From a virus: 64,000 bases of DNA. The notes beneath the pieces were generated by a model. The model worked only from the letters and a program-made list of their open reading frames with translations, searched no databases and was not told the origin of the DNA. Numbering within the stretch: position 1 is the first letter of the stretch; each line of letters begins with the position of its first letter. The DNA lies in IMG/VR virus record IMGVR_UViG_3300028831_000484, positions 5,398 to 69,397 of that record, one strand, 5' to 3'. Position numbers and translations under genes: made by a program. Positions 7,937 through 63,671 of the stretch are shown one piece after another.

Positions 7937-10900
7937 TTAAAACGACAGCGCGTTCTGAAGGCTGAAAACCTCACCAGCCTGGCGCCGCAACAACTCCGTA
8001 CGATCCGGCCGCAGCGACGACGTTGGTTGCCCTGTAAACGGGGCGATGCCAAGACGTTCCCCGTACCGGTTGAACAGCCTTATTGATTCCGTAACTGCCT
8101 GCTGGCCATTATCTGGCAGCGCCCTCAGCAAGGAATGATAATCTTTTGAGGAGGGCGGCGTTTGAAAAACAGAGCGCAGCGGATGTTGAAACGAGAAGGC
8201 ACGACGAACGTAATCCTTCGCATCCACCCGCCCGTCTTCCTTCGCCGCAGCAATGGCATCGGCGTACGCTTCGGCAAAAGCTCCGCTGTCGTTGGCCAGC
8301 GCGGACAGCATCATCTCTCGGATATAAGGCGTCGTTCGGTTGGGAACGTAATCCCCTGATGCGCTTGCCCCTTTGCGCACCGGGAGCTGTTCTGCGCGCC
8401 CGGCAACTCGTAACCAATTGTTCACGTTTAACCGGGCCGTGACGCGTGCCTCTGCGTTGTCGAATCCGAAGATACCGTTCAGCGCGTCCAACCATTGCAA
8501 GGCCCCGCTGCCACCCATCGCAGCGAACAATGGACGGTACACGGTGGCGTATGTGCCCGGCCCGCCCTGGTGGAATATCCATCCACCCATGGTGTCCATG
8601 ATGGAAGTCAGCGAGTTGACGAAGAACACCCGAGAATCAACCGTGAACGGCCTGGCCGTCGATTGATTGATGTAGGCGTTAGCCGCGTCACCGATGATGC
8701 CAAGGGATCCAACTGTGGCCACCCGGTCCAACATCGCCATCGCCAAGTTGTCTCCCCATAACGACATGCGGTTGGCCTTCTTCTTCAGCACGTCTTCATC
8801 CCACCGGTCTGCCAACAGGGAATACGCCAGTGCCACGCCAACGAGGGGCAACGCAGCGAACAGTCCACGTTGCAGCGTCAGCCACATGCCGTGCCGCTCG
8901 CCGGTAATCTGGTCCCGATAGATGGTGTCCAACGATGCCATCTGGCCAATCGCCCAGCCGGTCAATGGCGCCAGCACACCGAAGTAAGCGGAGGACGCAA
9001 GGGCAGACGGCCGTGTGGCGATGGAAGACTCACCGGTAATCTCTGTCGGGCCGATGACCAAGAGATGCTGGTATTGCTCCTTCGTCAGCACCTGCCCAGT
9101 CGTGCCACGACCAATGTAATCCTTGGCCATGTCCTCCAGCGTAAGGCCACCGTGCTGTTCCAACATGGCGATGTACCGCTCAAACTCACGCTGGCCCAAG
9201 TTGAACAACCTTGCGTGCGAACCATCGAACTGGAACGTCGGATCATTTAACGTGCCGGGCGGAGCTTGGTTCTCTATCCACTTCGCCGCCCGCGTCACCA
9301 GCCGTTCCGTCATGCTCCACACGGCGCGCACCGAAGCGGCATGGGCAATAGACGACTCCAAGTTGAACAAGGCAAACTTCAGCTTCGTAAACTTCGAACC
9401 CTTTGCAGGAGTTGGAACCGGGCTGCTGATTATTTCCCGGGACACGCGGCTTAAAATTGACACACCACGTCCAACCTTTTGAAGAATCGTTGCCGCATCA
9501 TCGGCTGGGTATGCGAGCGCGGCTGCAAGGATACGGTCCTTCAACCTTGTAACGTCGGCGTGCGGTTGCTGGTTAAGCTCATGCCACATGGCAATATGCT
9601 CAGCCTCCCAGTTCATGGTGATGTTGAACGCCTGAAGGAAACTGCCGATGGCTTCCTTTCCAAAACCAATAACACTTTTCGCAGTCTGCTCCCAGCCGAG
9701 TTTAGAAAAGCCGCCGTAGATTTGCAGCGGTTTGAACATCGCCGTCGTATCAAAGAATGCAGTCTTTGGCCCCTGCAACACGGCCGTAGTCATGGTCTGC
9801 ATCGCCTCCGCGAACGGCCGGAAATCCACCAGCACACCGCCGCGCAACTTCACCCAGTTCAGAAAGTTTTTCTCCTCCTTCGTAATGGAATGCAGGATGC
9901 GCGCAGCGTCGTTGAGCTGAGCCAACGTGAACCCTTCGGCCAGTGCCTGTGCTTCAATGTATGCCTTCTCGTCCTTCTTCGTTATCGTTCCCGCCGCAAT
10001 AGCTTCTTCCGCTCTCCTGCGGACCATGCCAAGCTTTTCGGATCGAATGCTGAAGTGATCCTTTGCGAGCTGGAATTCCTTTAACGCAACTTCCATGTTC
10101 CGCCCGAAGGCCAAGTGCAAGGCGAGCTGCGAGGATAACGCACGCGTTCCTTGGATGTCGTACCTGTGGTAACGCACCCATTCCTTTGGCAACTCATTCA
10201 TCTTGCGTGCATCCATCATGAGATGCTGCACCGGCACCACCGTTTTTCCGACAGCGTTGGCCTGATCGGACATCGCTCCGTGAATTGAGTCGTAGTAGGT
10301 TTGTATGGTGCCCAGCGTCTTCGCCACGAACGCAGCTCTCTCTGGCGGAAACGTAGGACCAGCCGGTGCCGTGGCATCAAACAGGTTCTCAGCGAACTTC
10401 AACACGTCACCAACCGGCGCATTATTGAAGGCATCCGTGACCTGCTGAACGGTTGCCAAGTGCGTGAACCCGGTATGGTCCGGCACAGCGTCGAATGCTG
10501 CTTGCCCTGGACGCCGGGCCAACGGTGCAAGGAACCGGTCCCAAACGTTCTTCGTAAACAACGGTGCCAGCTTCGCCGCCAGTGCTGGACGGTTTTCGTA
10601 TTCGCTGGCCAGCGTCTTAACGTCCATCGGTGACGTGGCCCACGCGCCCTTCTCGATGCCGTTGCCGTGCTGCATCTCCGTGTAGATACCGTGCAGCAAC
10701 GCAGAGAACGTTCTGCCGACTTCGCTCCGCAGTCCACGGAACGAGCGAAAAAAGTTTAAGTCATCATCCTTAATCTTCCCGCCGTTCTCTTGAATGAACG
10801 TGACGTATTCCTTATTGATGTCGAACGTGGTCCGCAGAAGGTTCTCCAGCGCTGCCCACTGGTGACCGGGCAGATTGAAGAAGGTCCGAACCGCAGCCAG

Positions 10901-13900
10901 TTGCCGGTTAACGATTGTATCCTCTGTTTCTCCGGCAGGACCAACCATCAAGTCGGCACGGCGACTGATATAGTCCAAGGCTGCATCGTAGTATTGTTCC
11001 AAGAACCGTTCGAAATGTTTCCGGCTGAAACCGGGGAACGCTTTGATGGCCTTGTTCAACGCGGTTGACCACTTCACCGCCCTGACTTGATCAGCTTCCC
11101 TCGTCAGGAAATGATTGCGCACCCAGTCACGGAGCTGGCGAGCAAACGCCTTCATCTCCGGAAGGCCGGTCATGTCCAGCACCTTGGCCATGTTCCCAAA
11201 GTTACGCTGCATGAAAGAAGTCACGCCACGATCCATCTGCGACTGCACCTTGTTCTCCCTCAGCTTGGCAATCTGTGTCGCCAACCGATTGTAGACTGCG
11301 CTTCCGTACTCAGGCGTGCCAGGGCCGTGCGCATCAATCCACTCCTTCATGAGTTGCAGACTTCGTTTTAGCTGATCGTTCTCCGCGCCGTCACGTTGAA
11401 CCTGATATTTCTGGCGCGGGTTAACAACCATGATGGTGCGCAGGTCATCGTTTTTAGTAACGACCGTAAGCATCTCAGAGCCGGGCAGTGCTTCGAAGTG
11501 TTCGTCCACCGCGCCAATCTCCCGCTCGTATGGCGCCAGGTATTCGTTAACCTTCTCACCAAGGCCAACCTGTGGCGCACCCGGAGGACCATAGTAAAAG
11601 CTTAACAAGTTCTTGGCCCTTTCAACGGTGGCCATGTCCTCGTACTGTTGCTTTTTGTAAGCCTCCAGCTTGTCCAACAAACGACGCGCTTTAATCTGTG
11701 CGCGGTTCTGCTTGGTCAACATGTTTCGAGCCATGCGGAAAGCTTCCTTCTGATCGCTCAGCGCCACCTTCAATGCGGCGTTAATCTCCAACTTGTCCTC
11801 GTAGTTCTGTTCCGCCGACAATCCCAGCATCTGCACAGCAAGGTCGTTGCGTTTTAGGAACAACGTTACGATAGACAGCAACGCCTTTCCGTCCTCCGTA
11901 TCAGCGCGCAGCTCGTCAATCATCGGAGCATTCGGGTTGATGGCGCCGTTGAGCGTGTCGCGCAACGTATCCTTAATCTCCTTCACGCTCATGTCGGACC
12001 AGACAAAATTCGGGTTATCAGCAAGGTAGCGTATTAAGCTAATGAAGCTCTCCTGCTTAACCCCGGTGAACGCCCTCGCCAATCTATCCATCGCCGTTGC
12101 GTAGGCACCGGCAATCGGCTGATCCAACTTGCCCTCGATGACTTCGATAACTCCTGCAATTTGTTCTTCTTTCGCGGCCAGCTTTGCTGCGTTGCCAGCG
12201 TTCGTTCGCAGCCATTTAATCCACGTCAGCACGTCCTTCTTCAAATCAGCAAACGCCAAATGCGCATCCTGATACCGCTGCGTGGCATCGTTTATTTTAC
12301 TTACGTTCCTGATGACCCTTTGAGCCGCCCCGCTCTGGTTAACGTCAACGTCAGCGCGGGCTTCGTTAACCTTCGCAAAGAAATTGCCAATCCACTTGCT
12401 GATCTTACCAGCCGCTTGAATTGCCACCTCGCGGCGTGTTGCTTCGTTCAACGTGGCCATGCGCTGGTTGGCCGGTGGCGGAGTTTGGCCTAGGTTCGCA
12501 ACGCCCTGACGCAGCGTGGCAATCATCGCAACCGGTTCATCCATGTGCGACGGCATGTGCTCCGCTTTAAAATCATCGAAGGTTTGGCCAGCAATGTTGT
12601 TGCCCTGCGCATTGTAGTCGGCAAACGCCTTCGTTATGAAATCGTTGAACTCGTTATTAGCAGCTATGGCTGTCGTAACGATGGCTGGCGTCACGTCGGC
12701 GGATGGTTGGCCCGGCTGGTTCCTGGTGCGTGGCGCGTGATACCGTATCGTAGCGTTCTCCAAGTTCTGGAACACTGCTGCCGCTGTGTCCGGGTCTGCT
12801 TCCTGCACTTCGATACCGCCACTTCGCGGATTGTAGAACCACGTCAACGCAGAGAATCCGTTCGCATGGTTACCACGTCCCCACTCCGTGCGATCCGTTA
12901 TCTTCGGCGCAGGCCCACCCATGAACGACGTGAACGACAACGGGCTAACATTCCCGGCCAAGAACGACTCAACGCGATTTTGTAAGTACGCAGTTGCCAG
13001 TTCCGCACCACGTTGCCCCATGTCCTTGCCGAACCACGCTCGCTGCATGGCCAACGCAGCACGGTAGTAAATGTTTTTCAGGAACCGCCAGAACGCCTGC
13101 GCAAGCCCACGCGCACGAGCCGGATTAAACCCAGCCGCAGTGATACGCTTGGCCACGGTATCAACGAGCCGTTCCTCTTGCTGCACGGCGGAACGTTGTT
13201 CGGCTGGGACACCCTTCGACAATGGAAGTTCCGCCGTGATGCCAAGGAAATCATCGGTGGCGCCTTTAATTGCATCCTGCAACAACGCTTGTTCACCCGC
13301 CGGTAATTGCGCGAACACTGCATGGGAGACTTCCGCGTTAAGATGGTATAGGTTAGTTAATGTCGGTTCCGTTACGTTGCTTAACACCATCGTCACCGTC
13401 TGCGTTGCGTTATCAATGGCGCCCATCTCCTGCACCATGCCTGCCGCTTCCTGGTGAACGATGGTTACGTTGTAACCTGCGTTGGCTAACGAGTTGACGG
13501 TGGCGTTGAAGGCGGATGTGACTTCGTTGGATGTGGCGCGGTTAGGTTCGATGGTGCCGCGATGCCCACGCACCTCACCACCACCAGCACGCCGAAGAAT
13601 GTCCCCCGCCTTGACCTGAATTGTCACTCGTGGTTCACCGGGTATTCCAGTTGAGTATGAAATCTCAACGTTGTTTGTTAACACGGCCTCCACTCTGCCA
13701 ACAAAACTCCCGCCACCTTTGGCGTTTTTAACCTCCACGAAATCGCCCGGTTTCAGTGCAGTTGGAGCTGCCGGTTCTTCCTCACCCATCCCCAACGCCT
13801 TCTTCAGCTCCTCCAGCTTAGCGGCTTTTTGCTCCGGGGTTAATGCTTGGGCGGAGGTTGTCTGCCCCCCTGCTGCTCCGCCTGCTCCAGACTGAGCAGT

Positions 13901-16900
13901 TTGTCCTGCCACTCCTGCTGCCCCAGGTTTTGCTCCGGTAGTACTACCGGAAACTGACCCACTGGTTGTTGTGGTGGCGGCGGTCTTTTGAGCGCGTCCG
14001 GTACTGCTCCAAAAGCCCTCAAAGTTTCGAGCAGCTTCTTCCCTGATTGCTGATGTGAGATGTTTCGCAAACTCTTCCTTGCTTCCTCCAGCCTTTGTTT
14101 TCGAGTCCACAATGAAGACGCGGAGTGCTGCGACGATTTGCTCTTCAGTTTTTGCGCCATGAGTAGTGAAAAGGGTTACGATTTTTTGGAGTGCGACACG
14201 CACATCTTCGTCAGAGTGCGCCTGCTTGGTGATGTTAACAATTGGATCACCGGTTTTTCTAACTGACCAAAACAATGAACTGGCTTCATCCTCTGTGAAA
14301 CCTTCTTTGGCAAGCAACTCATCGGCTGGCGTCGTTGGCTCAACCGGTGTCACCGTCTTCTGCTCGCCTTCGCCGCCCTCAACGGTGGTCTTTTCACCTT
14401 CAACCGCTGCGGTCTTCGCCGCCTCTGTGCCGAGGATTTCTTCCGCAGACTTAGCGTACTCTTCGAATGCCGCTTGGTCCTTGAAGACGATGCCGTGCTG
14501 ATCGTTGGTTGAGTCAACCGCTTTGTTTGCTGCCAACGTCACAGCGCCGAGCACCGTATAACGTGGAGCACCGGCCGTTTCCTTTGCCAGGAAGTTGCCC
14601 AGTTGACTTCCCTTTGCATCACCCTGCAACCTGCCAACGTAAACCTTTCCGGCAGTCTTGTAGGTGCCAAGCCCAAACACACGACCGGTGATGTTGTCCA
14701 AGAAGAACGTGAGCTGTCGCGTCAACGATTTCTTTTGAACATTCGCCCCGGCTGCATTCGCCGTGAGCCGTTCGCCAAGCTTCTTAACGTCCTTGGCTTC
14801 CTCCGGGGTGACACGGAAGAAAGCCGGTTCCTTTGTGATGCCATGCTTTTGTTCCTGCCACGGATGACCAGCAAAGTCCGTTTGATCAAAGACGGCTTGC
14901 GGCGTGGAGAACGAAGGAGGAGCCGCAAGTTCAAGAGTAGGACCATGCGCTTTGCCACCGAACTCTTTTGTTAGTTCTTCTAAAGCTTTCTCCAAACCAA
15001 ACTCTGGTCTTAGCTGATGCTCTGTCAATGGTTGCGCTTGTCCACGCAAAATGTTGTCTTGGAGTGTGGCTCTGGTGCCGTCGTCATTTACCGCGAAGAG
15101 CGTCTTCGATACCCACCTTCCAGCATCTTGCAGAAAAATGTTTGTTGACGTTAAAACGAACGGTTTCCCGGCTACCGCTCCGACCTTGGCGCCTTTGAAA
15201 AACCGCTTCCAGTTTGGTGGACGAGCTTCATGCTTGTTCCATTCCTCAGACCAGGGCTTATGGGGGTTTGCCTCTTCATCAGCAGTTACAACTCCTTTTT
15301 GGAAATCGAATTTTCCACCCGGCGCCTTGGCCTCCGCCTCAAGCTCAGCAAGGTGCTGTTTTAACGCTGGATTTCTCTCGGCCTCAGCGGCAATAGACTC
15401 AGGGTGTGGCGCCGTAGTTGTTGAAACCGCAGCCGGAGCGGTCGTGGTCGCTGGCGACGGGCTTTCAGGGGGTGCGGGCGTACCCGTCGGTGCAGCCGCC
15501 GTGGCGCCCGGCTGCGGAGATGGTGGTGCTGTTACTTGGTTGACCTGGTCACTGGGCGTTGTCCCGGTTTGCGCTGCGAGTTGTAGATCCGGGCTGCTGA
15601 CCGCTTGGCCGCTTTGAGCGGGAACCCCTCCCGGTGTAGCTTGTCCCGTATCGCTTCGTACTTCTTCGGCATTTGTAACACCCCCTTCCGTGGTTGTAGT
15701 TGTAGTTGTTGGTGCTGCTGGTGCTGCCGGTGGCACTGGTTGCGCGGCAGTTGTAGCCGTCACACCGGCAACTGGTGGCGTGGCGCCGGTATCGGTTACT
15801 GCCGTAGTCGTAGGAGCCGCCGCTGCCTGCGCCTGCTTTTGTTGTTTTAAAATCCCATACGCGGTCTGCACATCTGGTGGCATCTGCGCCAACAGCGTTT
15901 GAATCTCCAGTGGCAACGTCCCGGCAATGTCTTGACTTGCCCACTCCGCCAATCTGGATTGCGTATCCTCGTTAACGTTCCCGGTGTACTGCCCGAGGAT
16001 CCCGGTGGTTGGCAGGGCGGGCGTTGATCCGGGTGTTACGGTTGTCGTTGTCGCAGTCGTTGCCGTTGTCGTCGTTGCAGGAGGAGACGCGGCAGCGCCT
16101 CCCGCCGCGCCTCCGGGTGGTGGGATGGTTCCCTTAGCAGACTCAGCCTCCTTTTGTGAAGCAGTGGGGGGAGTAGGGGTCTTAACGCCTTTCGCTTTGC
16201 CTAAGGCATGGGTAACGACCGAAAACAAAAACCCAGTAAGAACGCCGCCCGCCGCGTTCTCTGCAAGTTCATCGCGCAGGTCACGGTCCTTGTCGTACGT
16301 TTCTTTTGCTACGACGTTTTGCAGGAGCTGTTGCCCGGCTTCCTGCACTCCGTTCTCAAAGGATTCCTTCGCACCTTCAATAAGGGCTTTCGTAAACCCT
16401 CCACCGGAAATCCCGTCCAACCGCTTCAACATGTTCGTCAGCGGAATGATTTCCGTGGCGCCGATGGGCAGGTTCCAAAGGAAGTTTTGCACTGCCTGAT
16501 CGTGCGTTGCGCCCTTCGATAACGCTTCCTCGTACGCTGAGACTCCCTGAGCCGTCGAACCAAGCGCGGCAATCGGCGCGTTATCCGCCACCCAGCTCTT
16601 CAACTTCAAAGCCTTTGGCGCGGCCTTGTAAGCCAGCTCCTTCAGCGTGTCATCCGCCGCAACTTCTGCCGCCGTTTTAACGACACCTTCTTCAATCAGC
16701 TTCTTCGTCCCGGCTTCAAGGGCAAGGTTGGCAAACTTTCCGGCCCCGGTTACCAACCTGCCACCGATACCACCGGCAATAAACCCGGCCGCTGAACCAA
16801 CGTAGGAAGGCAGTTTATTTGCCCAGAAGGATCCCTCCAATTCCGGGACTGGTTCAGGTGTGACTTTCGCGGCAAGTTCGTCAATGCCCTGGCCGATTTT

Positions 16901-17236
16901 GTAGGACAACGTTTCCCGTGCATCCTCCGGTTCACCGAACGGAATGCCGGTTGCCTTGGCCAACGCGGAGGCGCCAACGCCGATGGCTTTGAAAGGAGAA
17001 GCTAAAACGTCGGCTGCGCTGCGCACCGTTGAACCAAGGATCTCCTTTGTGTATTCCGGTATGCCGGGCTTGTACGCTTCGGCAATCGTGGCGCTTAACG
17101 AATTGTAGTCTGCTGCAAAATCCGGGGCAGCTTGAAGAAGTTCAGGGTACTTGCTGCCGAGGTCCAACGTGATTGCTTCGTCGGATCTTGGATCGTTGTT
17201 CTGCGAACGATAGTATTGTAGAACGCTGTTAGGCAC
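7937..17236 (-). CDS. giant internal virion / DNA-ejection (polyvalent-type) protein, 3099 aa
   Basis: Last of the GNAT/ejection cluster; Ala/Thr/Pro linkers; degenerate zincin-like segment. No RNA polymerase motif recognised. Confidence 0.7.
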   Translation of the reverse strand: MPNSVLQYYRSQNNDPRSDEAITLDLGSKYPELLQAAPDFAADYNSLSATIAEAYKPGIPEYTKEILGSTVRSAADVLASPFKAIGVGASALAKATGIPFGEPEDARETLSYKIGQGIDELAAKVTPEPVPELEGSFWANKLPSYVGSAAGFIAGGIGGRLVTGAGKFANLALEAGTKKLIEEGVVKTAAEVAADDTLKELAYKAAPKALKLKSWVADNAPIAALGSTAQGVSAYEEALSKGATHDQAVQNFLWNLPIGATEIIPLTNMLKRLDGISGGGFTKALIEGAKESFENGVQEAGQQLLQNVVAKETYDKDRDLRDELAENAAGGVLTGFLFSVVTHALGKAKGVKTPTPPTASQKEAESAKGTIPPPGGAAGGAAASPPATTTTATTATTTTVTPGSTPALPTTGILGQYTGNVNEDTQSRLAEWASQDIAGTLPLEIQTLLAQMPPDVQTAYGILKQQKQAQAAAAPTTTAVTDTGATPPVAGVTATTAAQPVPPAAPAAPTTTTTTTEGGVTNAEEVRSDTGQATPGGVPAQSGQAVSSPDLQLAAQTGTTPSDQVNQVTAPPSPQPGATAAAPTGTPAPPESPSPATTTAPAAVSTTTAPHPESIAAEAERNPALKQHLAELEAEAKAPGGKFDFQKGVVTADEEANPHKPWSEEWNKHEARPPNWKRFFKGAKVGAVAGKPFVLTSTNIFLQDAGRWVSKTLFAVNDDGTRATLQDNILRGQAQPLTEHQLRPEFGLEKALEELTKEFGGKAHGPTLELAAPPSFSTPQAVFDQTDFAGHPWQEQKHGITKEPAFFRVTPEEAKDVKKLGERLTANAAGANVQKKSLTRQLTFFLDNITGRVFGLGTYKTAGKVYVGRLQGDAKGSQLGNFLAKETAGAPRYTVLGAVTLAANKAVDSTNDQHGIVFKDQAAFEEYAKSAEEILGTEAAKTAAVEGEKTTVEGGEGEQKTVTPVEPTTPADELLAKEGFTEDEASSLFWSVRKTGDPIVNITKQAHSDEDVRVALQKIVTLFTTHGAKTEEQIVAALRVFIVDSKTKAGGSKEEFAKHLTSAIREEAARNFEGFWSSTGRAQKTAATTTTSGSVSGSTTGAKPGAAGVAGQTAQSGAGGAAGGQTTSAQALTPEQKAAKLEELKKALGMGEEEPAAPTALKPGDFVEVKNAKGGGSFVGRVEAVLTNNVEISYSTGIPGEPRVTIQVKAGDILRRAGGGEVRGHRGTIEPNRATSNEVTSAFNATVNSLANAGYNVTIVHQEAAGMVQEMGAIDNATQTVTMVLSNVTEPTLTNLYHLNAEVSHAVFAQLPAGEQALLQDAIKGATDDFLGITAELPLSKGVPAEQRSAVQQEERLVDTVAKRITAAGFNPARARGLAQAFWRFLKNIYYRAALAMQRAWFGKDMGQRGAELATAYLQNRVESFLAGNVSPLSFTSFMGGPAPKITDRTEWGRGNHANGFSALTWFYNPRSGGIEVQEADPDTAAAVFQNLENATIRYHAPRTRNQPGQPSADVTPAIVTTAIAANNEFNDFITKAFADYNAQGNNIAGQTFDDFKAEHMPSHMDEPVAMIATLRQGVANLGQTPPPANQRMATLNEATRREVAIQAAGKISKWIGNFFAKVNEARADVDVNQSGAAQRVIRNVSKINDATQRYQDAHLAFADLKKDVLTWIKWLRTNAGNAAKLAAKEEQIAGVIEVIEGKLDQPIAGAYATAMDRLARAFTGVKQESFISLIRYLADNPNFVWSDMSVKEIKDTLRDTLNGAINPNAPMIDELRADTEDGKALLSIVTLFLKRNDLAVQMLGLSAEQNYEDKLEINAALKVALSDQKEAFRMARNMLTKQNRAQIKARRLLDKLEAYKKQQYEDMATVERAKNLLSFYYGPPGAPQVGLGEKVNEYLAPYEREIGAVDEHFEALPGSEMLTVVTKNDDLRTIMVVNPRQKYQVQRDGAENDQLKRSLQLMKEWIDAHGPGTPEYGSAVYNRLATQIAKLRENKVQSQMDRGVTSFMQRNFGNMAKVLDMTGLPEMKAFARQLRDWVRNHFLTREADQVRAVKWSTALNKAIKAFPGFSRKHFERFLEQYYDAALDYISRRADLMVGPAGETEDTIVNRQLAAVRTFFNLPGHQWAALENLLRTTFDINKEYVTFIQENGGKIKDDDLNFFRSFRGLRSEVGRTFSALLHGIYTEMQHGNGIEKGAWATSPMDVKTLASEYENRPALAAKLAPLFTKNVWDRFLAPLARRPGQAAFDAVPDHTGFTHLATVQQVTDAFNNAPVGDVLKFAENLFDATAPAGPTFPPERAAFVAKTLGTIQTYYDSIHGAMSDQANAVGKTVVPVQHLMMDARKMNELPKEWVRYHRYDIQGTRALSSQLALHLAFGRNMEVALKEFQLAKDHFSIRSEKLGMVRRRAEEAIAAGTITKKDEKAYIEAQALAEGFTLAQLNDAARILHSITKEEKNFLNWVKLRGGVLVDFRPFAEAMQTMTTAVLQGPKTAFFDTTAMFKPLQIYGGFSKLGWEQTAKSVIGFGKEAIGSFLQAFNITMNWEAEHIAMWHELNQQPHADVTRLKDRILAAALAYPADDAATILQKVGRGVSILSRVSREIISSPVPTPAKGSKFTKLKFALFNLESSIAHAASVRAVWSMTERLVTRAAKWIENQAPPGTLNDPTFQFDGSHARLFNLGQREFERYIAMLEQHGGLTLEDMAKDYIGRGTTGQVLTKEQYQHLLVIGPTEITGESSIATRPSALASSAYFGVLAPLTGWAIGQMASLDTIYRDQITGERHGMWLTLQRGLFAALPLVGVALAYSLLADRWDEDVLKKKANRMSLWGDNLAMAMLDRVATVGSLGIIGDAANAYINQSTARPFTVDSRVFFVNSLTSIMDTMGGWIFHQGGPGTYATVYRPLFAAMGGSGALQWLDALNGIFGFDNAEARVTARLNVNNWLRVAGRAEQLPVRKGASASGDYVPNRTTPYIREMMLSALANDSGAFAEAYADAIAAAKEDGRVDAKDYVRRAFSFQHPLRSVFQTPPSSKDYHSLLRALPDNGQQAVTESIRLFNRYGERLGIAPFTGQPTSSLRPDRTELLRRQAGEVFSLQNALSF

Positions 17237-34381: not shown

Positions 34382-36049
34382 TTAACCCTCGCTGGTGCCA
34401 GAGCAGACGTTGTCCGTGGCGAGCACAGGGCAATCACCCGAGAAGTTCTTCAGCACATAGTGCCGGAGCGGGTCTTCGATGATCGAAGTCCACTTCTTGC
34501 TCTTCAGGATGTAAGTGTTCTGCACCGCTTTGATGACGCAGTTATACAACCGATCCGTAGCCGGGTCAGGACTGACGCGCTGCACCGAGTTGGAGTCAGC
34601 AATGCCGAGCTGAATGTCCGACCAGTCCAGCGCCCACATCGTGCGCTGCCGGTTAATCTGATCGGCGTCCGTGCCAGCCGCCAGCAACTTGTCGGAGAAG
34701 TAGTCATCGTGCCAGATGACCAGTTCGAATCCGCCGAATTCGGCAGGGATTTCGTACAAGTCGTAGTTCAACATGACCTGCTTCTCGAAGGTCAGCTTCT
34801 CGTTCGGCTTGTAGAACCTGGTGTTGTCAACCCCGTAGTACGCCTTGAAGAAGTTGAGCATCGTCGTGAAGATGCGGCCAGCGTTCGTCCGGTTCGTGGC
34901 CCATTCGATACGGTCAATCGTCCCACCGGATGCTTCACGCGCACGCTTCATGTCGTAGGACAGGTCGAACAAATCGGCCAAGTCCAGCGGGTTCCCGGCG
35001 AGATCGCCGTAACGGCCGCAGTCAATGAGCTGCTGCTCGAACCCGAGCGCGTTGGCCTTGTATTCCAACGTGCAGTCGGTGGCGTTCGGGTCAACCACCG
35101 TGGGCAGGTTGGTGTAGTTGTTGACATCCTGATTCTCGTTGATGCGCTGCCCGAAGAACACCGAGTTGAGCCAAGCTTTGTAAGCCTGCGCCTGCTGCTG
35201 CACCTTCTGCTGTGCCAGCGGAAGCTGCTTGAACTGCTTCCAATACCCGGAAGTCAACGCTGCATTCAGCGCCATCAGGTACTCCGTGTTGACACAGGAA
35301 GTTTCCCGGCTGGTTTGCAACCAATAGCATAGCAACATGTTGGGGTTATCGGACGGATCGTTGTAGCACCAGGACTCGTAGTCCGAGACCGAGTTCGCCA
35401 AGTTGAGGAGCAAGCCAGCCGTGGGTTGCCAAGCTTTCTTTTGATCGCTCGTCAGGCCACTCCATCCCGCATCGGAGTAGTTCGGTTCCAACGTCAGCGT
35501 GGCATCGCTGCCATCGTTAACAGAGGCGATGATCTTGAACTGCATCGCATAGGCAGCTTTCGTGGAGGCGTCCACCGTTTCGATGAGAACGTAACGGCCC
35601 GGCAGGAAAAATCGTTCGATGTTCGTTAACGGCGTCCCATACTTGGATGGGTTGTTCGACACCGTGACATCCCAAGCCCCAGAATGCAGACCTTCGCCAT
35701 CATTGTCCTCGCCAGCGGTCACCAACCAGTAGTTGGAGTTGATGTTGCGCTTCTGCCTTCGGTAGATGTAGGGCAGGATGATGGACTCGTTTTTGATGGG
35801 CGCCCGCGCCAGTTCGCCCTTGATGGGAACCATGCGGGAGTTCAGCAACGACTCCAAAAATTTCTCCTGGTAACCGGCCACCACCGCTTCAGCAGCGGAA
35901 GAGATGACGCGGTCCATATAGACTTCGGTTGCCCCCTGCGCTTCGAACGTGTCAGGCGTCATGCCAACGATCGAGGCCCGCGTGAGAGCACAACCACACG
36001 AAGCGTCAACGGCGACGTACCGCGATCCACAATTGGATGGGAAACTCAT
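34382..36049 (-). CDS. probable major capsid protein
   Basis: 555 aa; follows portal and scaffold; followed by a strong terminator. Assigned from synteny. Confidence 0.72.
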   Translation of the reverse strand: MSFPSNCGSRYVAVDASCGCALTRASIVGMTPDTFEAQGATEVYMDRVISSAAEAVVAGYQEKFLESLLNSRMVPIKGELARAPIKNESIILPYIYRRQKRNINSNYWLVTAGEDNDGEGLHSGAWDVTVSNNPSKYGTPLTNIERFFLPGRYVLIETVDASTKAAYAMQFKIIASVNDGSDATLTLEPNYSDAGWSGLTSDQKKAWQPTAGLLLNLANSVSDYESWCYNDPSDNPNMLLCYWLQTSRETSCVNTEYLMALNAALTSGYWKQFKQLPLAQQKVQQQAQAYKAWLNSVFFGQRINENQDVNNYTNLPTVVDPNATDCTLEYKANALGFEQQLIDCGRYGDLAGNPLDLADLFDLSYDMKRAREASGGTIDRIEWATNRTNAGRIFTTMLNFFKAYYGVDNTRFYKPNEKLTFEKQVMLNYDLYEIPAEFGGFELVIWHDDYFSDKLLAAGTDADQINRQRTMWALDWSDIQLGIADSNSVQRVSPDPATDRLYNCVIKAVQNTYILKSKKWTSIIEDPLRHYVLKNFSGDCPVLATDNVCSGTSEG

Positions 36050-57024: not shown

Positions 57025-57141
57025 ATTAGAGGGTTGGAGGAGCGATCCTGATTTGTGGTGCGCCCCTTTTTACCAATCGGGCGGCAAACGCATTTACGGG
57101 TACCTGCCTCGTGACGCATTGCATGGTTCTGGCACTGTTCT

Positions 57142-57591
57142 TCATGGCGGCACGTCCTTGTAATCCCAGCCTCCATCTGCCCCACGTCTGACCATCCGAA
57201 ACTTGATCATGGGGTACATCCGGGCCACCACCTTGACCTTGACCCATGAATCTTCCCACATATGCGCCCCCTTCACCTCGTATCCCAACCAGTTCCCCAG
57301 CTCGTCTATGCAGATGAAATCGCAAGTGTACCGGCACTTGTCCGCAAGCTTCAACGTAACCGATTGCACGTAAATCTTCGGATACCCCTGCTGCAACAAA
57401 TGCAGGTAAAACGCCCGCTCCAGCTTGTTCAACCCGTCCACGTCCTTCGATTGGCGAACGAGCAGCTTTTGCAGTTCCCGGCCGGGCGCCGGGTTGTCCA
57501 GCACGTAACGGCTCATCGGCGTGCTCTCCGGGTTCAAGGCCGGGTTCTTGGCCAGGAACTTGCGATACTGCTCGTCCGTCCATCGTGGCAT
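57142..57591 (-). CDS. PD-(D/E)XK endonuclease (DUF1064 / resolvase-like)
   Basis: NKLERAFY...RYTCDF...YEVKG. Confidence 0.75.
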   Translation of the reverse strand: MPRWTDEQYRKFLAKNPALNPESTPMSRYVLDNPAPGRELQKLLVRQSKDVDGLNKLERAFYLHLLQQGYPKIYVQSVTLKLADKCRYTCDFICIDELGNWLGYEVKGAHMWEDSWVKVKVVARMYPMIKFRMVRRGADGGWDYKDVPP

Positions 57592-57617
57592 GTAAGTTGT
57601 TGACGTTTAACTACTTA

Positions 57618-57875
57618 TCAAAAAGGTACATCGTCACTGTCATCCATCGGCGGAGGCGCAGGTTTGTTTACGGCCGGTGCGCTGCGTTCCTTGGGCAATT
57701 GCAGGTTCAGGGTCATGAACTTCTTCCCGTTCTGACTTTCCTTGATCCATCCGGCCATGCGATATTCCACGCCTTTGACCGTCATTTTGCCCGTATAATC
57801 AGGCCGTTTATCGCCCGGTTCCTTCTCCTCGTTTCTGAAGAGGATCCCGCTCATGTCGTAGGTTTTTTCTGCCAT
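57618..57875 (-). CDS. small SSB-like protein
   Basis: GILFRNEEK...RPDYTG...AGWIKE; acidic DDSDDVPF tail. Confidence 0.72.
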   Translation of the reverse strand: MAEKTYDMSGILFRNEEKEPGDKRPDYTGKMTVKGVEYRMAGWIKESQNGKKFMTLNLQLPKERSAPAVNKPAPPPMDDSDDVPF

Positions 57876-60287: not shown

Positions 60288-61217
60288 TCATAGACTCGGC
60301 TTCCTCACCTGCGGCGGCGGATTTAAAACTCTCCTTCGCCTCGAAATCTCCCCATTCTCATCAAACCCCTCCAGCGTCGTCTGCTCACCCACGACCTTTC
60401 CAACCTCCTCCCGCATCACCGGCAAATCACGCGCCGAGTAATACGAATCAAACTTGGTTTTTGCGAACAACGTGATCGGCCGAAGGTATTCCTCCTGCGG
60501 CGTCCCTTTCCAACGGCTGACCTGCCGATTGATCATGACCCTACATCCCGCCTCCTCCACACCAGCCTCCGCCAGCCTCGCAGCAATTATCGAAAGATTG
60601 GACTCCACCTCCCGAAACGGCTTCCCAGTCGCCTGCGCCAAGTGTCCCAATAACCTGCGCGCCACCTCATAACGAACAATCTTCTCTGAATCACCGTTTG
60701 TGCTTGCCTTAGTAATCGCGCGCGCGGTACAAGGATCTCTTACAAGGTCCTTGTAAGAATTCTGAGTAAGATCCTGATCCTGATCCTTATCCTCATGGGA
60801 GGGGGCCTCCCATGCCACTGGGAGTGGGGGTGGGAGGGGGGCTACCAGGGGGACTGGGAGGGGGGCTACCACCCCATCGCTTCCTATCAAAAGCCCATGT
60901 TTCTTCAACAATGCCATCACTCGAACATGGTATTGGCATCGTCCTGATAGCTCTCCGTATTGAAACTTGATGAACTTCGGAATAAACCACTTCGCCTCCG
61001 CCAGCCTCCTCACCCTGTCCCCCAATAATCCCATGTCCGTTTCCTTAAAACCTCCCGCCCCTACTCCTGACTCGAAATTTACCCTGTCCCAATCTAACTC
61101 GATTACTCCTGCCCCATCACATTGATCGCAGATATACAACCACAACCACTGCAATCGCATTCCAAGCTGCCGGAACCATGGATCTCCCCACTTCCCACCT
61201 TCAGTAAATCGCTTCAT
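60288..61217 (-). CDS. phage replication initiator (Phg_2220_C-like C-terminus)
   Basis: MKRFTEGGKWGDPWFRQL N-terminus; YLRPITLFAKTKFDSY C-terminus; DKDQDQD linker. Confidence 0.8.
   Translation of the reverse strand: MKRFTEGGKWGDPWFRQLGMRLQWLWLYICDQCDGAGVIELDWDRVNFESGVGAGGFKETDMGLLGDRVRRLAEAKWFIPKFIKFQYGELSGRCQYHVRVMALLKKHGLLIGSDGVVAPLPVPLVAPLPPPLPVAWEAPSHEDKDQDQDLTQNSYKDLVRDPCTARAITKASTNGDSEKIVRYEVARRLLGHLAQATGKPFREVESNLSIIAARLAEAGVEEAGCRVMINRQVSRWKGTPQEEYLRPITLFAKTKFDSYYSARDLPVMREEVGKVVGEQTTLEGFDENGEISRRRRVLNPPPQVRKPSL
60796..60871. repeat. iteron-like direct repeats inside the initiator gene (putative origin)
   Basis: TGGGAGGGGGGCTACCA at 60831 and 60855; partial copy at 60796. Confidence 0.5.
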
Positions 61218-61699
61218 CCGTGACTTTCCTTCCTGTAAAAAAATCGGGACCCCACCAGACTGAGCTTTCTTCGGAAGATACTGGCCGCTCGGCCGTTTCG
61301 AAGCAATCGGTGGAGTCCCAAACTTTAAATCTCGTTTCCAAAGAAAGCTGCCCGCTGTTCTACTCCCTCCACCATCCCCTGCAAGTCTTTTTTTCAACTC
61401 GCTCGTTTTTCCTCCCAATTCAATGAACCTTAATGAAATTGAAATTGTCAGAAAGTTGAGAGAAGGGCCATTGTGCGCCGCCCCGGCCTGGCCCCCTCGC
61501 CCCCGGATCACCCCGGATACTCGAAATCCTGGCGTTTCTCCTCATTTGCAAGGAGTTACGCGTTTCACAACCTCAATCGCCGTATGATCAAGCAAGTCGC
61601 CCGTTTCGGGATTTCTCCAATTCCTTCAAACGACTTGCGGATCAAACGGAAACACAGCTTAGCTGATAGACCTTGACGCGTTCAACGGATTTGACCGTA

Positions 61700-62515
61700 T
61701 GGAAAGGGAGAAAGCAAGTAACGGTAAACGAGACAAGCCACACGGTCCGCTTCAAAGGGTTAGCCCCTAGACTGCTGGCGACACCATTTCGGTTTCAAAT
61801 CTCTGCTATCGTGAACAGCGCGGTTTCCATAGACGCAGATTGCGAGCGTAACTCGCAAGGTTCACGAACCTACAATCGTAGCACGGTCTAAGCCGTGACG
61901 TTGTAAGCCCAGTATGTCAGACGTGAGTAGACGGGCAGTTCAAACTGAGGTGCGAACTGAGACACGTTTACCGAATAGGTGAGTAACACCTTAGAACGGG
62001 GCGAGCTAAAGCGGGAAGTCGACGGGACAAGCCCAAGCAAGCTTTCGAGTGAGACGCGCGATAAACAGCGTCTACGCCATGGAGAAACGCAAGATACTCC
62101 GTAGGTAGGTAGGCACGTAGATAAAGCCTACAATGCCCGATGAGGGCGGACTAAAGCCAGTCCGTAATCCGTGAAGAACGGAGCGAGACTGGCAAGCAAT
62201 ACTTTATGCGGTAGTGAGGAACTACCGGGCAGGGAAAGCAATCCTGCAATCCGTTGAACCAAGTAGCAAGGTAGGCAAGGAGTGAAGATTAGGATCTGGC
62301 TTACAATACCCATTGCGAAAGGTTGAGACGGTCAAAAGCAAGTTGTGCCGATGCTATCAATAACACAGTATCGGAAACTAACACGACAACGTAGCAGCGT
62401 CCGTTAGACGCTGGGAATAACACTTAACAAGCGGGAAGAGTAGAAGACAGGGGAAGACAATCAAAGGTAGTTGAAACGGGCAGGTGAGAGAGAAACAACT
62501 CACCTGCCCTTTGTG
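61700..62515 (+). ncRNA. candidate large structured non-coding RNA (boundaries approximate)
   Basis: No convincing ORF; perfect stems at 61840-58, 62156-93, 62209-27, 62395-413; ends at an 11-bp hairpin. Confidence 0.55.
62478..62515 (+). terminator. terminator-like hairpin
   Basis: gggcaggtgag-N10-ctcacctgccc-tttgtgtt. Confidence 0.55.
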
Positions 62516-62618
62516 TTGAGCCTACAATGTCGTAGGTTCAAACCAAGGGGCAATGTCCAATTGGTTCAGGTAACAAAAACAAATGCCCCAATAGGGGCGA
62601 AAGGTAGTTAAGGTAAGT

Positions 62619-63119
62619 ATGAAAGTAAGCAAGTTGACAGTGGAACAGCTCAAGGCTGAGTTGATCAAGGCGAATGAAGCAAGGGCCAACGGGACAATCA
62701 CCGTTGAGAATTCACGGGGTGAAACCCGTACGCTGTCATTCACGAGTGTCAGTCATACGGGCGGATTCGCTCTTAACAAAGACGTTGAGGCGAACAAGCC
62801 GGCATTTCTGGAATACTTGGCGATCAGCACAATGGCGTTGAGTCAGACACAGAAGGCTAGCAGTGGCGGACACGTTGCGCGTTCGTCCGCGACACATAAC
62901 CAAAAGAAGGACGTGGCGAGTCTTTCCACCCGCATTGCGGGATTGGTGCCGAAGACGGTTCCGGCGGTTATCGCATTGGCGCAAGCGCAAGCTGCGGCCA
63001 AGTTGGTGAAACAGATCGAGAATGAAATTGCGGATCGTGAAGCGATTGCCAAGAAGTTGGCGAAGGCAGCGGCGAAGCGGGCGGAGAAGGCAGCGGCTTT
63101 GAAGCAGAATGCGGCCTAG
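62619..63119 (+). CDS. hypothetical protein with Lys/Ala-rich C-terminus
   Basis: 166-aa ORF followed by a terminator. Confidence 0.7.
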   Translation: MKVSKLTVEQLKAELIKANEARANGTITVENSRGETRTLSFTSVSHTGGFALNKDVEANKPAFLEYLAISTMALSQTQKASSGGHVARSSATHNQKKDVASLSTRIAGLVPKTVPAVIALAQAQAAAKLVKQIENEIADREAIAKKLAKAAAKRAEKAAALKQNAA

Positions 63120-63147: not shown

Positions 63148-63184
63148 AGGCGAGATTGAGCGAAGGTTCTGTCTCGCCTTTTTT
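63148..63184 (+). terminator. probable intrinsic terminator
   Basis: aggcgaga...tctcgcct followed by a T-run. Confidence 0.55.
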
Positions 63185-63209
63185 GCATCAAAATGGATAC
63201 AATGGTGGC

Positions 63210-63671
63210 ATGAAGCAGGCGCACGGTTATGCTGGGAAGGTGAAGCATCCGCTTTATCTAGTGCGGATGGCGATGCTGGAAAGGTGTTACAACAAAAAGC
63301 ATCACGATTACAACCGGTATGGTGGTCGCGGGGTGATAGTTTGCAAGCAGTGGATTAACGATCCTGTGGCTTTTATTAAATGGGGATTATCACATGGATG
63401 GGCACCGGGGTTAACGATTGATCGGAAGAACAACGACGGGCCGTATTCACCTGGCAACTGTCGATTCAGCACTCGATTGCAGCAGGCTCGTAATCGGTCG
63501 GACAACGTGTTGACGGCCGCAGACGTGGTGTGGATTCGCAAATTGTTCAATGAGCTTGCGGTGCCCTACGGGGACAGGGTGTGGTTCGACAGGGAAGTTG
63601 CGGCCGTGTTTGGAGTAGCGCACAACACAGTTCGAAACGTACGGCTGGGCAGAACATGGAAACAGCTTTGA
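63210..63671 (+). CDS. HNH homing endonuclease (YGGRG family)
   Basis: YGGRGVIVCKQW...TIDRKNNDGPYSPGNCRFST. Confidence 0.86.
   Translation: MKQAHGYAGKVKHPLYLVRMAMLERCYNKKHHDYNRYGGRGVIVCKQWINDPVAFIKWGLSHGWAPGLTIDRKNNDGPYSPGNCRFSTRLQQARNRSDNVLTAADVVWIRKLFNELAVPYGDRVWFDREVAAVFGVAHNTVRNVRLGRTWKQL

Follow-up and report, generated by a model that had tools for sequence, protein, structure and literature searches.

Positions 61218–62618 of the phage DNA analyzed here form a gene-free gap of 1.4 kb. The explanation that we favor, with about even confidence, is that this stretch specifies a long, modular and fast-evolving plus-strand leader RNA, which gates an early operon at an intrinsic terminator. 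The leader family is new and uncatalogued, and its kind, the control region made of a leader and a terminator, is already known. From comparisons of sequence and predicted folding, we infer transcription of the stretch, the start of the transcript and its gating role.

The analyzed window, 64 kb long, comes from an IMG/VR record of a soil phage (77.6 kb), and all positions refer to this window. The gap is wider than the segment 61700–62515 that was first described. It reaches left to position 61218 because the true ATG of the adjacent replication initiator is located at 61217 and not at 61511. The initiator ORF (60288–61511, minus strand) is over-extended: its alignment with the nearest relative (P0005) begins at ORF residue 99 (MKRFTEGG...), and the ATG at 61217 has a ribosome-binding site (GGAAGGAAAG). 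The first 98 codons of the ORF are of low complexity and probably non-coding. To the left of the gap, the minus strand encodes this Phg_2220_C replication initiator and a primase-helicase. To the right, a series of small plus-strand genes begins with an orphan gene for a 166-aa protein (62619–63119), which has its own terminator at 63148–63185, and extends to the end of the record and then across the arbitrary record break to a TasA gene. The left margin of the gap (61218–61448, minus strand; fold z = −2.7) belongs to the divergent replication operon as its leader. It includes a long imperfect hairpin at 61247–61320 (GGGAC-CCACC ... GGTGG-GTCCC in the plus-strand reading), which is found immediately upstream of the initiator's ribosome-binding site and is a possible leader structure of that operon.

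Two HNH endonuclease genes in this part of the genome follow the same small cassette, located at 63148–63210 and at the record equivalent of window positions 64940–65013. The cassette comprises a strong terminator hairpin, a T-run and the motif TTGCAT, after which the start codon follows within 25–40 nt, with little or no Shine-Dalgarno sequence. These cassettes look like mobile units, with mRNAs that may lack a leader.

The sequence-only reading, which preceded this analysis, had characterized the stretch as ORF-poor and purine-rich, and both descriptions hold. Each of the six frames is rich in all three stop codons (TAA, TAG and TGA); thus no reassignment of a stop codon opens any frame, and a recoded genetic code is ruled out. 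Hidden small proteins were rejected as well, since the ten small ORFs of the gap had no Pfam or PHROG match at E values up to 1. Purines account for 58% of the plus strand over positions 61512–62618. The GC and AT skews become positive at ~61600–61750, and a purine loading that resembles the downstream plus-strand genes sets in at ~61650. Internal repeats in the gap are limited to short matches of two to three copies, and a self-comparison retrieved no significant direct repeat, so that neither an internal duplication nor iterons were retained as an explanation.

The predicted RNA structure is stronger than that of shuffled sequences, a comparison that the same reading had asked for. The 816-nt stretch first described gave z-scores of −5.36 on the plus and −4.66 on the minus strand. 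Across the delimitations of the stretch, the scores ranged from −5.4 to −7.7 on the plus strand (−6.48 for 61660–62520) and were weaker on the minus strand, compared to +1.6 to −4.8 for 20 size-matched control windows/strands of this phage. The stretch contains 14 perfect hairpins versus 4.4 ± 2.1 in 300 shuffles and ranks second among 385 genome windows in this respect. Local structure is focused in 62100–62260 and 62400–62700, and across 62000–62700 the local z-scores are stronger on the plus than on the minus strand; positions 61650–62000 are unremarkable in 200-nt windows. The plus-strand window 62404–62603 has the lowest score (z = −9.1) of all 1034 200-nt genome windows/strands. Elsewhere in the genome, the second most extreme local fold was found at 57454–57653 on both strands (z = −6.7 and −6.4), pointing to a strong palindrome or hairpin close to where the ORF at 57026–57583 ends. 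Across the genome, perfect short hairpins are densest at ~34600–36000 (15–17 per 800 nt; genome-wide mean 6.6), inside or beside a 555-aa ORF (34382–36049, minus strand).

All stems named in the sequence-only reading are present in the sequence where it had placed them. From left to right on the plus strand, a perfect 12-nt complement (61680–61691 with 62248–62259) is predicted to form a long-range helix in both the minimum free energy and the centroid fold. This helix would close a multi-branch domain of ~570 nt and is, taken alone, only marginally beyond chance. Inside this domain, a nested hairpin at 61813–61866 consists of an outer GTGAAC/GTTCAC stem and an inner stem-loop TTGCGAG-CGTAA-CTCGCAA (61840–61858), followed by the hairpin CACGG-TCTAAG-CCGTG at 61882–61897, which is located inside CTACAA/TTGTAAG. 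The stem GCCAGTC/GACTGGC at 62156–62193, which encloses TCCGT-GAAGA-ACGGA (62168–62182), belongs to a stretch at 62100–62300 with a z-score of about −4 on the plus strand, and a further perfect stem, CGGTAGT-GAGGA-ACTACCG, is found at 62209–62227. No counterpart of either of these two mid-region hairpins was seen in the relatives described below. Farther downstream lie the hairpin CCGATGCT/AGTATCGG at 62348–62374 and the perfect stem CAGCGTC-CGTTA-GACGCTG at 62395–62413. The former contains a G62353-U62369 wobble, and one of the two natural variants inside the gap, C62348>T in the near-identical copy L083, changes its C-G pair to U-G; in both cases, pairing is kept only in plus-strand RNA.

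The last of the named stems, the “closing 11-bp hairpin” at 62478–62509, is real and turned out to be the stem of a predicted intrinsic terminator (62478–62518, plus strand), which is situated ~100 nt before the 166-aa gene. Eight of its 11 base pairs are G-C, and the stem is followed by TTTGTGTTG. With −22.3 kcal/mol and a z-score of −4.5, this G+C-rich hairpin with its U-rich tract has the sequence anatomy of an intrinsic terminator, is oriented with the plus-strand genes and is among the few strongest terminator-like sites of the genome. The spacer between it and the gene (62516–62618; z = −4.0) is short and structured, with hairpins at 62516–62541 and 62585–62598 and the Shine-Dalgarno region at 62602–62615.

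An exhaustive HMMER protein search retrieved 13 distant homologues of the 166-aa protein with 25–35% identity. Its AlphaFold model (pLDDT 90) shows two units of a helix plus a beta-hairpin and then a C-terminal helix of 50 residues, many of them Ala and Lys; a fold search with this model gave nothing significant in the PDB or BFVD. Every homologue whose contig extends upstream is preceded by 446–1894 bp without a called gene: 446 bp in L228, 961 bp in L097, 991 bp in L229, 1656 bp in L096 and 1894 bp in L225, as well as at least 876 bp in L224 and at least 1400 bp in L226 and L227, where the contigs end. A hairpin of −22 to −35 kcal/mol with a U tract is located 60–110 nt before the start codon in all eight lineages, and the relatives also show a second hairpin downstream of the terminator. 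The terminator stems are largely unrelated in sequence, which is why MAFFT/RNAalifold analysis of the terminator regions yielded no consensus across the lineages. In the last 780–900 nt before the gene, the plus strand folds better than the minus strand in seven of seven lineages, with z-scores of −5.9 to −7.7 in four lineages and −1.5 to −1.8 in the other three (L096, L226 and L229); these are rough values based on 10 shuffles each.

The left neighbors of the gap vary between the contigs of the relatives (that of L096 is unrelated to the initiator), and the gap stays with the 166-aa gene. We conclude that the element belongs to this gene and the early operon and not to replication. The proposal that the RNA is transcribed divergently from the replication operon is supported insofar as the element is oriented away from that operon, has a plus strand-biased fold and ends in a terminator, but the link to replication is incidental. 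Searches that started from the DNA or from the replication genes were less productive. Apart from two near-identical copies (L082 and L083; 99.8–99.9% identity), no DNA homologues of the gap were found in GenBank phages, in 80 IMG/VR loci around relatives of the initiator or in four loci from genome contigs. The closest initiator relative (L084, 37% identity) has no gap, and no IMG/VR relatives were found for the primase-helicase and the 166-aa protein. The sequence occurs in four sequencing runs, all of them DNA runs from one soil study with no RNA run listed, and the only variants across these runs are 62305 A>G and 62647 A>G.

Short sequence blocks, collinear with the window, are shared between the lineages. 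Block A (GAAAGTTGAGAGAAGGG; 61451–61467, plus strand) occurs once in the window, where the non-coding unit has its upstream edge. Its sequence is invariant in the window, L225, L097 and L229 and diverged in L096; the leader may have its start or promoter region here, or the block may be a DNA site. In the four lineages with the invariant block, Block B (CCCCCGGATCACC; 61500–61512) follows at a distance of 50 nt. A C-rich tract separates the two blocks, and such a tract is present in L096, L097 and L226. This tract, which ends in Block B (61468–61516), corresponds to four or more G-runs on the minus strand and has a G-quadruplex-like look. Three independent contigs (L224, L226 and L227) start at or just after it, which could reflect either a physical genome end or a break in sequencing or assembly. 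Block F (61833–61861) aligns with L224 and L225 and is part of the nested hairpin at 61813–61866; in L225, the inner stem reads TTGCC/GGCAA, with one G-C pair changed to C-G. By nhmmer, positions 61408–61906 of the window aligned with L225 (E = 5e-6). Block D (about 62225–62247), which contains the hairpin GCAGG-loop-CCTGC (62229–62247), has 21 of 24 positions in common with L226 and L227, with a 2-nt indel in the loop. In the L226 sequence, the closing G-C pair reads G-U, which fits plus-strand RNA. Block C (GGTTGAGACGGTCAAAAGCAAG; 62321–62342), located upstream of the terminator, is the best-conserved block. Its 17-mer is identical in L096, matches at 16 of 17 positions in L226, L227 and L228 and occurs as a variant in L225, and its distance to the terminator ranges from 15 to 135 nt. 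A scan of viral and metagenome contigs with this 17-mer retrieved chance matches only, with uninformative flanks, and the combined pattern of Blocks A and B had no match in IMG/VR.

Covariation could be assessed in two pairs of relatives, L097/L229 and L226/L096, as only these were alignable. For L097/L229 (64% identity), RNAalifold predicted 161 base pairs, 39 of which show compensatory changes. In a less biased test, one sequence was folded alone and its pairs were followed in the other. Pairing was kept in 25 of 40 double substitutions between L097 and L229 (15.7 ± 3.0 expected, p = 0.0025), but one-sided changes disrupt predicted pairing in 69 of 90 cases, and an equal signal was obtained on the minus strand. 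When L226 was folded and mapped onto L096, 25 of 36 double substitutions kept pairing (14.4 expected, p = 0.0005) on the plus strand only; the excess was not significant in the reverse mapping. Hence, the gathering of homologues that had been suggested did reveal an excess of compensatory changes in both alignable pairs, yet most predicted pairs are not conserved, and we conclude that some local hairpins are maintained without a conserved global architecture. A covariance model of a well-supported module of L097/L229 matched only its own two sequences, and a model of the best-folded domain of the window (62136–62262) found nothing in eight related loci. For the stems of the window itself, there are only two single observations of covariation because its lineage holds near-identical copies only.

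The gap also contains four TACAAT boxes on the plus strand (61871, 62129, 62302 and 62523, spanning 61871–62528; 0.2 expected), three of which occur as CCTACAAT. Five of the 15 plus-strand copies of this motif in the genome fall within 1.3 kb. The boxes may be −10 elements or RNA motifs. No −35 element common to them was seen, no consensus sigma-70 promoter was called in the gap, and a reading of the relatives' sequences showed none of the boxes. A pattern scan with three spaced TACAAT boxes gave six matches, which corresponds to chance level.

According to the sequence-only reading, the stretch could be an ornate RNA of ~800 nt that belongs to the GOLLD or ROOL class or to a new one. A scan with Rfam 15 gave no match at the gathering score in the 64-kb window and none in seven related loci, and a permissive scan of 61300–62800 (E up to 10) produced four noise matches (E = 1.8–7.2) far below the gathering scores. 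The stretch is therefore not a GOLLD or ROOL RNA, an intron, a riboswitch or a member of another catalogued class. Nor did the idea of a single ornate RNA with conserved architecture survive the comparison with the relatives, as only blocks of 12–22 nt cross lineages and the covariance model of the best domain found none of the eight loci. GOLLD (RF01998) and ROOL (RF03087) are large ornate RNAs of 600–800 nt or more with many helices that occur in phages (Weinberg et al. 2017, PMC5737381; cryo-EM in 10.1101/2024.12.08.627333). The stretch resembles them in its size class, its occurrence in a phage and its many helices, but it lacks a multi-helix core common to its relatives. In phages or prophages, GOLLD and ROOL genes often neighbor tRNA genes. 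Unlike in such a neighborhood, ARAGORN detected no tRNA or tmRNA in the window.

Since this phage carries a TasA gene and several dual-repeat arrays, and the gap contains variable palindromes, TIGR arrays were considered as another known class. In the stem-loop arrays of TIGR-Tas systems, variable palindromes follow one another and no repeats are obvious (Faure et al. 2025, PMC12045711), and each stem-loop unit requires two spacers of 8–12 nt with box C/D motifs inside (PMC12045711). The dual-repeat arrays show alternating edge and loop repeats, spacers of ~9 nt and a period of ~36–39 nt, none of which was found in the gap: it contains no tandem repeat, no regular period and only one GCRACA anchor. 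An nhmmer profile for which 35 TIGR units of this phage were used, and which recovers every known array of the phage, retrieved nothing in 61200–62700 at E values up to 1000. The hairpin loops in the gap (4–11 nt) are too short for two 8–12-nt spacers, and no recurring box C/D-like motif was recognized among its enriched words. Targeting of the gap by the phage's own TIGR spacers was rejected too, with a best match of 16 of 18 positions, which is chance level.

The closest known parallels are the control regions of phage early or late operons that combine a leader and a terminator. Lambda pR'-6S RNA-tR' with the Q protein and the put RNAs of HK022 exert such control through leaders of 70–200 nt. 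As in these systems, a non-coding leader would open the operon here, a predicted intrinsic terminator precedes the first gene, and downstream expression would need read-through or antitermination. The proposed leader of 0.85–1.1 kb or more is, in contrast, hairpin-dense and exceeds theirs in length five- to tenfold. Elements that resemble put, nut or boxA were not identified in it, nor was an antiterminator protein. The E. coli consensus of boxA (GCTCTTTAACAA, up to three mismatches), a mark of rRNA-type (Nus factor) antitermination leaders, is absent from 61218–62618, and its count across the window equals chance. This absence is a weak negative, since boxA differs between phyla and the host's may not follow the E. 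coli consensus. Phage T7 has a gene-free left end of ~0.9 kb. In regions of that type, several host-type promoters precede the first gene without an intervening terminator. Here, the TACAAT boxes are enriched, and a strong terminator sits between three of them and the 166-aa gene. A replication origin with iterons was rejected, as there are no clustered direct repeats and no related initiator accompanies the element in the relatives. A 3099-aa ORF prompted the idea of a virion RNA polymerase with hairpin promoters as in N4, which was discarded: the hairpins lack a promoter-like consensus, and the ORF has no family match. This ORF (7937–17236, minus strand), which is located among the late genes, encodes a giant protein without a PHROG match at E = 1e-5, a Pfam match above noise or a PDB sequence match.

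In the leader model, a plus-strand transcript of ~0.85–1.1 kb would start between Block A (61451) and ~61700, fold as a string of mostly local hairpins and end at the terminator at 62478–62518. It would head the early operon of small plus-strand genes, the first being the 166-aa gene at 62619. Blocks A, B, F, D and C and the terminator would be the parts kept in distant relatives, and the rest would evolve fast. Early transcription would make the leader RNA and largely halt at the conserved terminator, and RNA polymerase would reach the first early gene by read-through or antitermination, or from a weak promoter in the 100-nt spacer. Block C, which precedes the terminator and is predicted to be single-stranded, is a candidate recognition site that possibly aids read-through, and the released RNA of ~1 kb may have a role of its own. 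As counterpoints, ~1 kb is unusually long for an attenuator, and Blocks A and B, together with the contig ends of the relatives, could point to a DNA-level role of the left part of the gap.

Alternatively, the region could be a stand-alone gene for a large, trans-acting structured RNA, ornate as the sequence-only reading meant it, with its own promoter and terminator, which perhaps acts with the 166-aa protein and does not regulate the downstream gene. The discrete 3' terminator in every lineage, the strong global fold including the predicted 12-bp closing helix and the strict adjacency of the RNA region and the 166-aa family would all suit such a gene, and the TACAAT box in the post-terminator spacer could serve the protein-coding gene separately. 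We nevertheless consider this fairly unlikely, as no Rfam family matches, a conserved core is missing from regions that vary in length from 0.84 to at least 1.6 kb and have only blocks of 12–22 nt in common, covariance models built on well-folded modules have no matches in other lineages, and most predicted pairs are lost between L097 and L229. Improbable in our view is a dedicated RNA-protein pair, in which the ~1-kb RNA and the 166-aa protein would be made first in infection and form, for example, a scaffold, a decoy or an anti-defence ribonucleoprotein. If this were true, the stretch would represent a new class of large phage RNA, and its fast-evolving hairpins would reflect an arms race and not a lack of function.

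A mainly DNA-level element, such as genome-end or entry DNA with a terminus, packaging site or origin (Block A, the C/G-rich tract and Block B) and tandem early promoters (the TACAAT boxes), would be similar to the left end of T7 and would treat the hairpins as incidental or as acting in DNA form. The plus strand-biased fold in seven of seven lineages is not what DNA hairpins would produce, and the conserved terminator would block transcription-driven functions; together with the lack of iterons or significant internal repeats, this makes such an element quite unlikely. Several observations speak for it, namely the conserved, single-copy Blocks A and B, the clustering of TACAAT boxes on the plus strand, the starts of three independent contigs at or just after the C-rich tract, the replication initiator that adjoins the gap in this phage and a gene order to its left that varies among relatives as at a genome junction. 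However, contigs ending at a G/C-run can be a sequencing artefact, the relatives have no replication initiator beside the gap, and the TACAAT boxes share no visible −35 element and were not seen in the relatives. Highly improbable, finally, is a non-functional spacer or a set of decayed genes with hairpins and composition as by-products. The very fast sequence turnover between lineages and the lack of counterparts for the mid-region hairpins of the window would be expected of a spacer, but all lineages examined keep 0.45–1.9 kb without genes ahead of this one gene family, in genomes with tight packing elsewhere. The conserved blocks and the terminator, the extreme fold z-scores, the excess of compensatory changes and the absence of any remnant protein similarity argue in the same direction.

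For the annotation of this phage, our results imply that the replication-initiator ORF should be shortened by ~98 codons and that the gap should not be counted with the TIGR guide arrays. Beyond this genome, at least seven lineages of uncultivated soil phages link such a stretch to an orphan gene family and to a terminator that is conserved. This gene-linked family provides a defined set of sequences with which to ask whether the leaders control entry into the early program or act as RNAs themselves.
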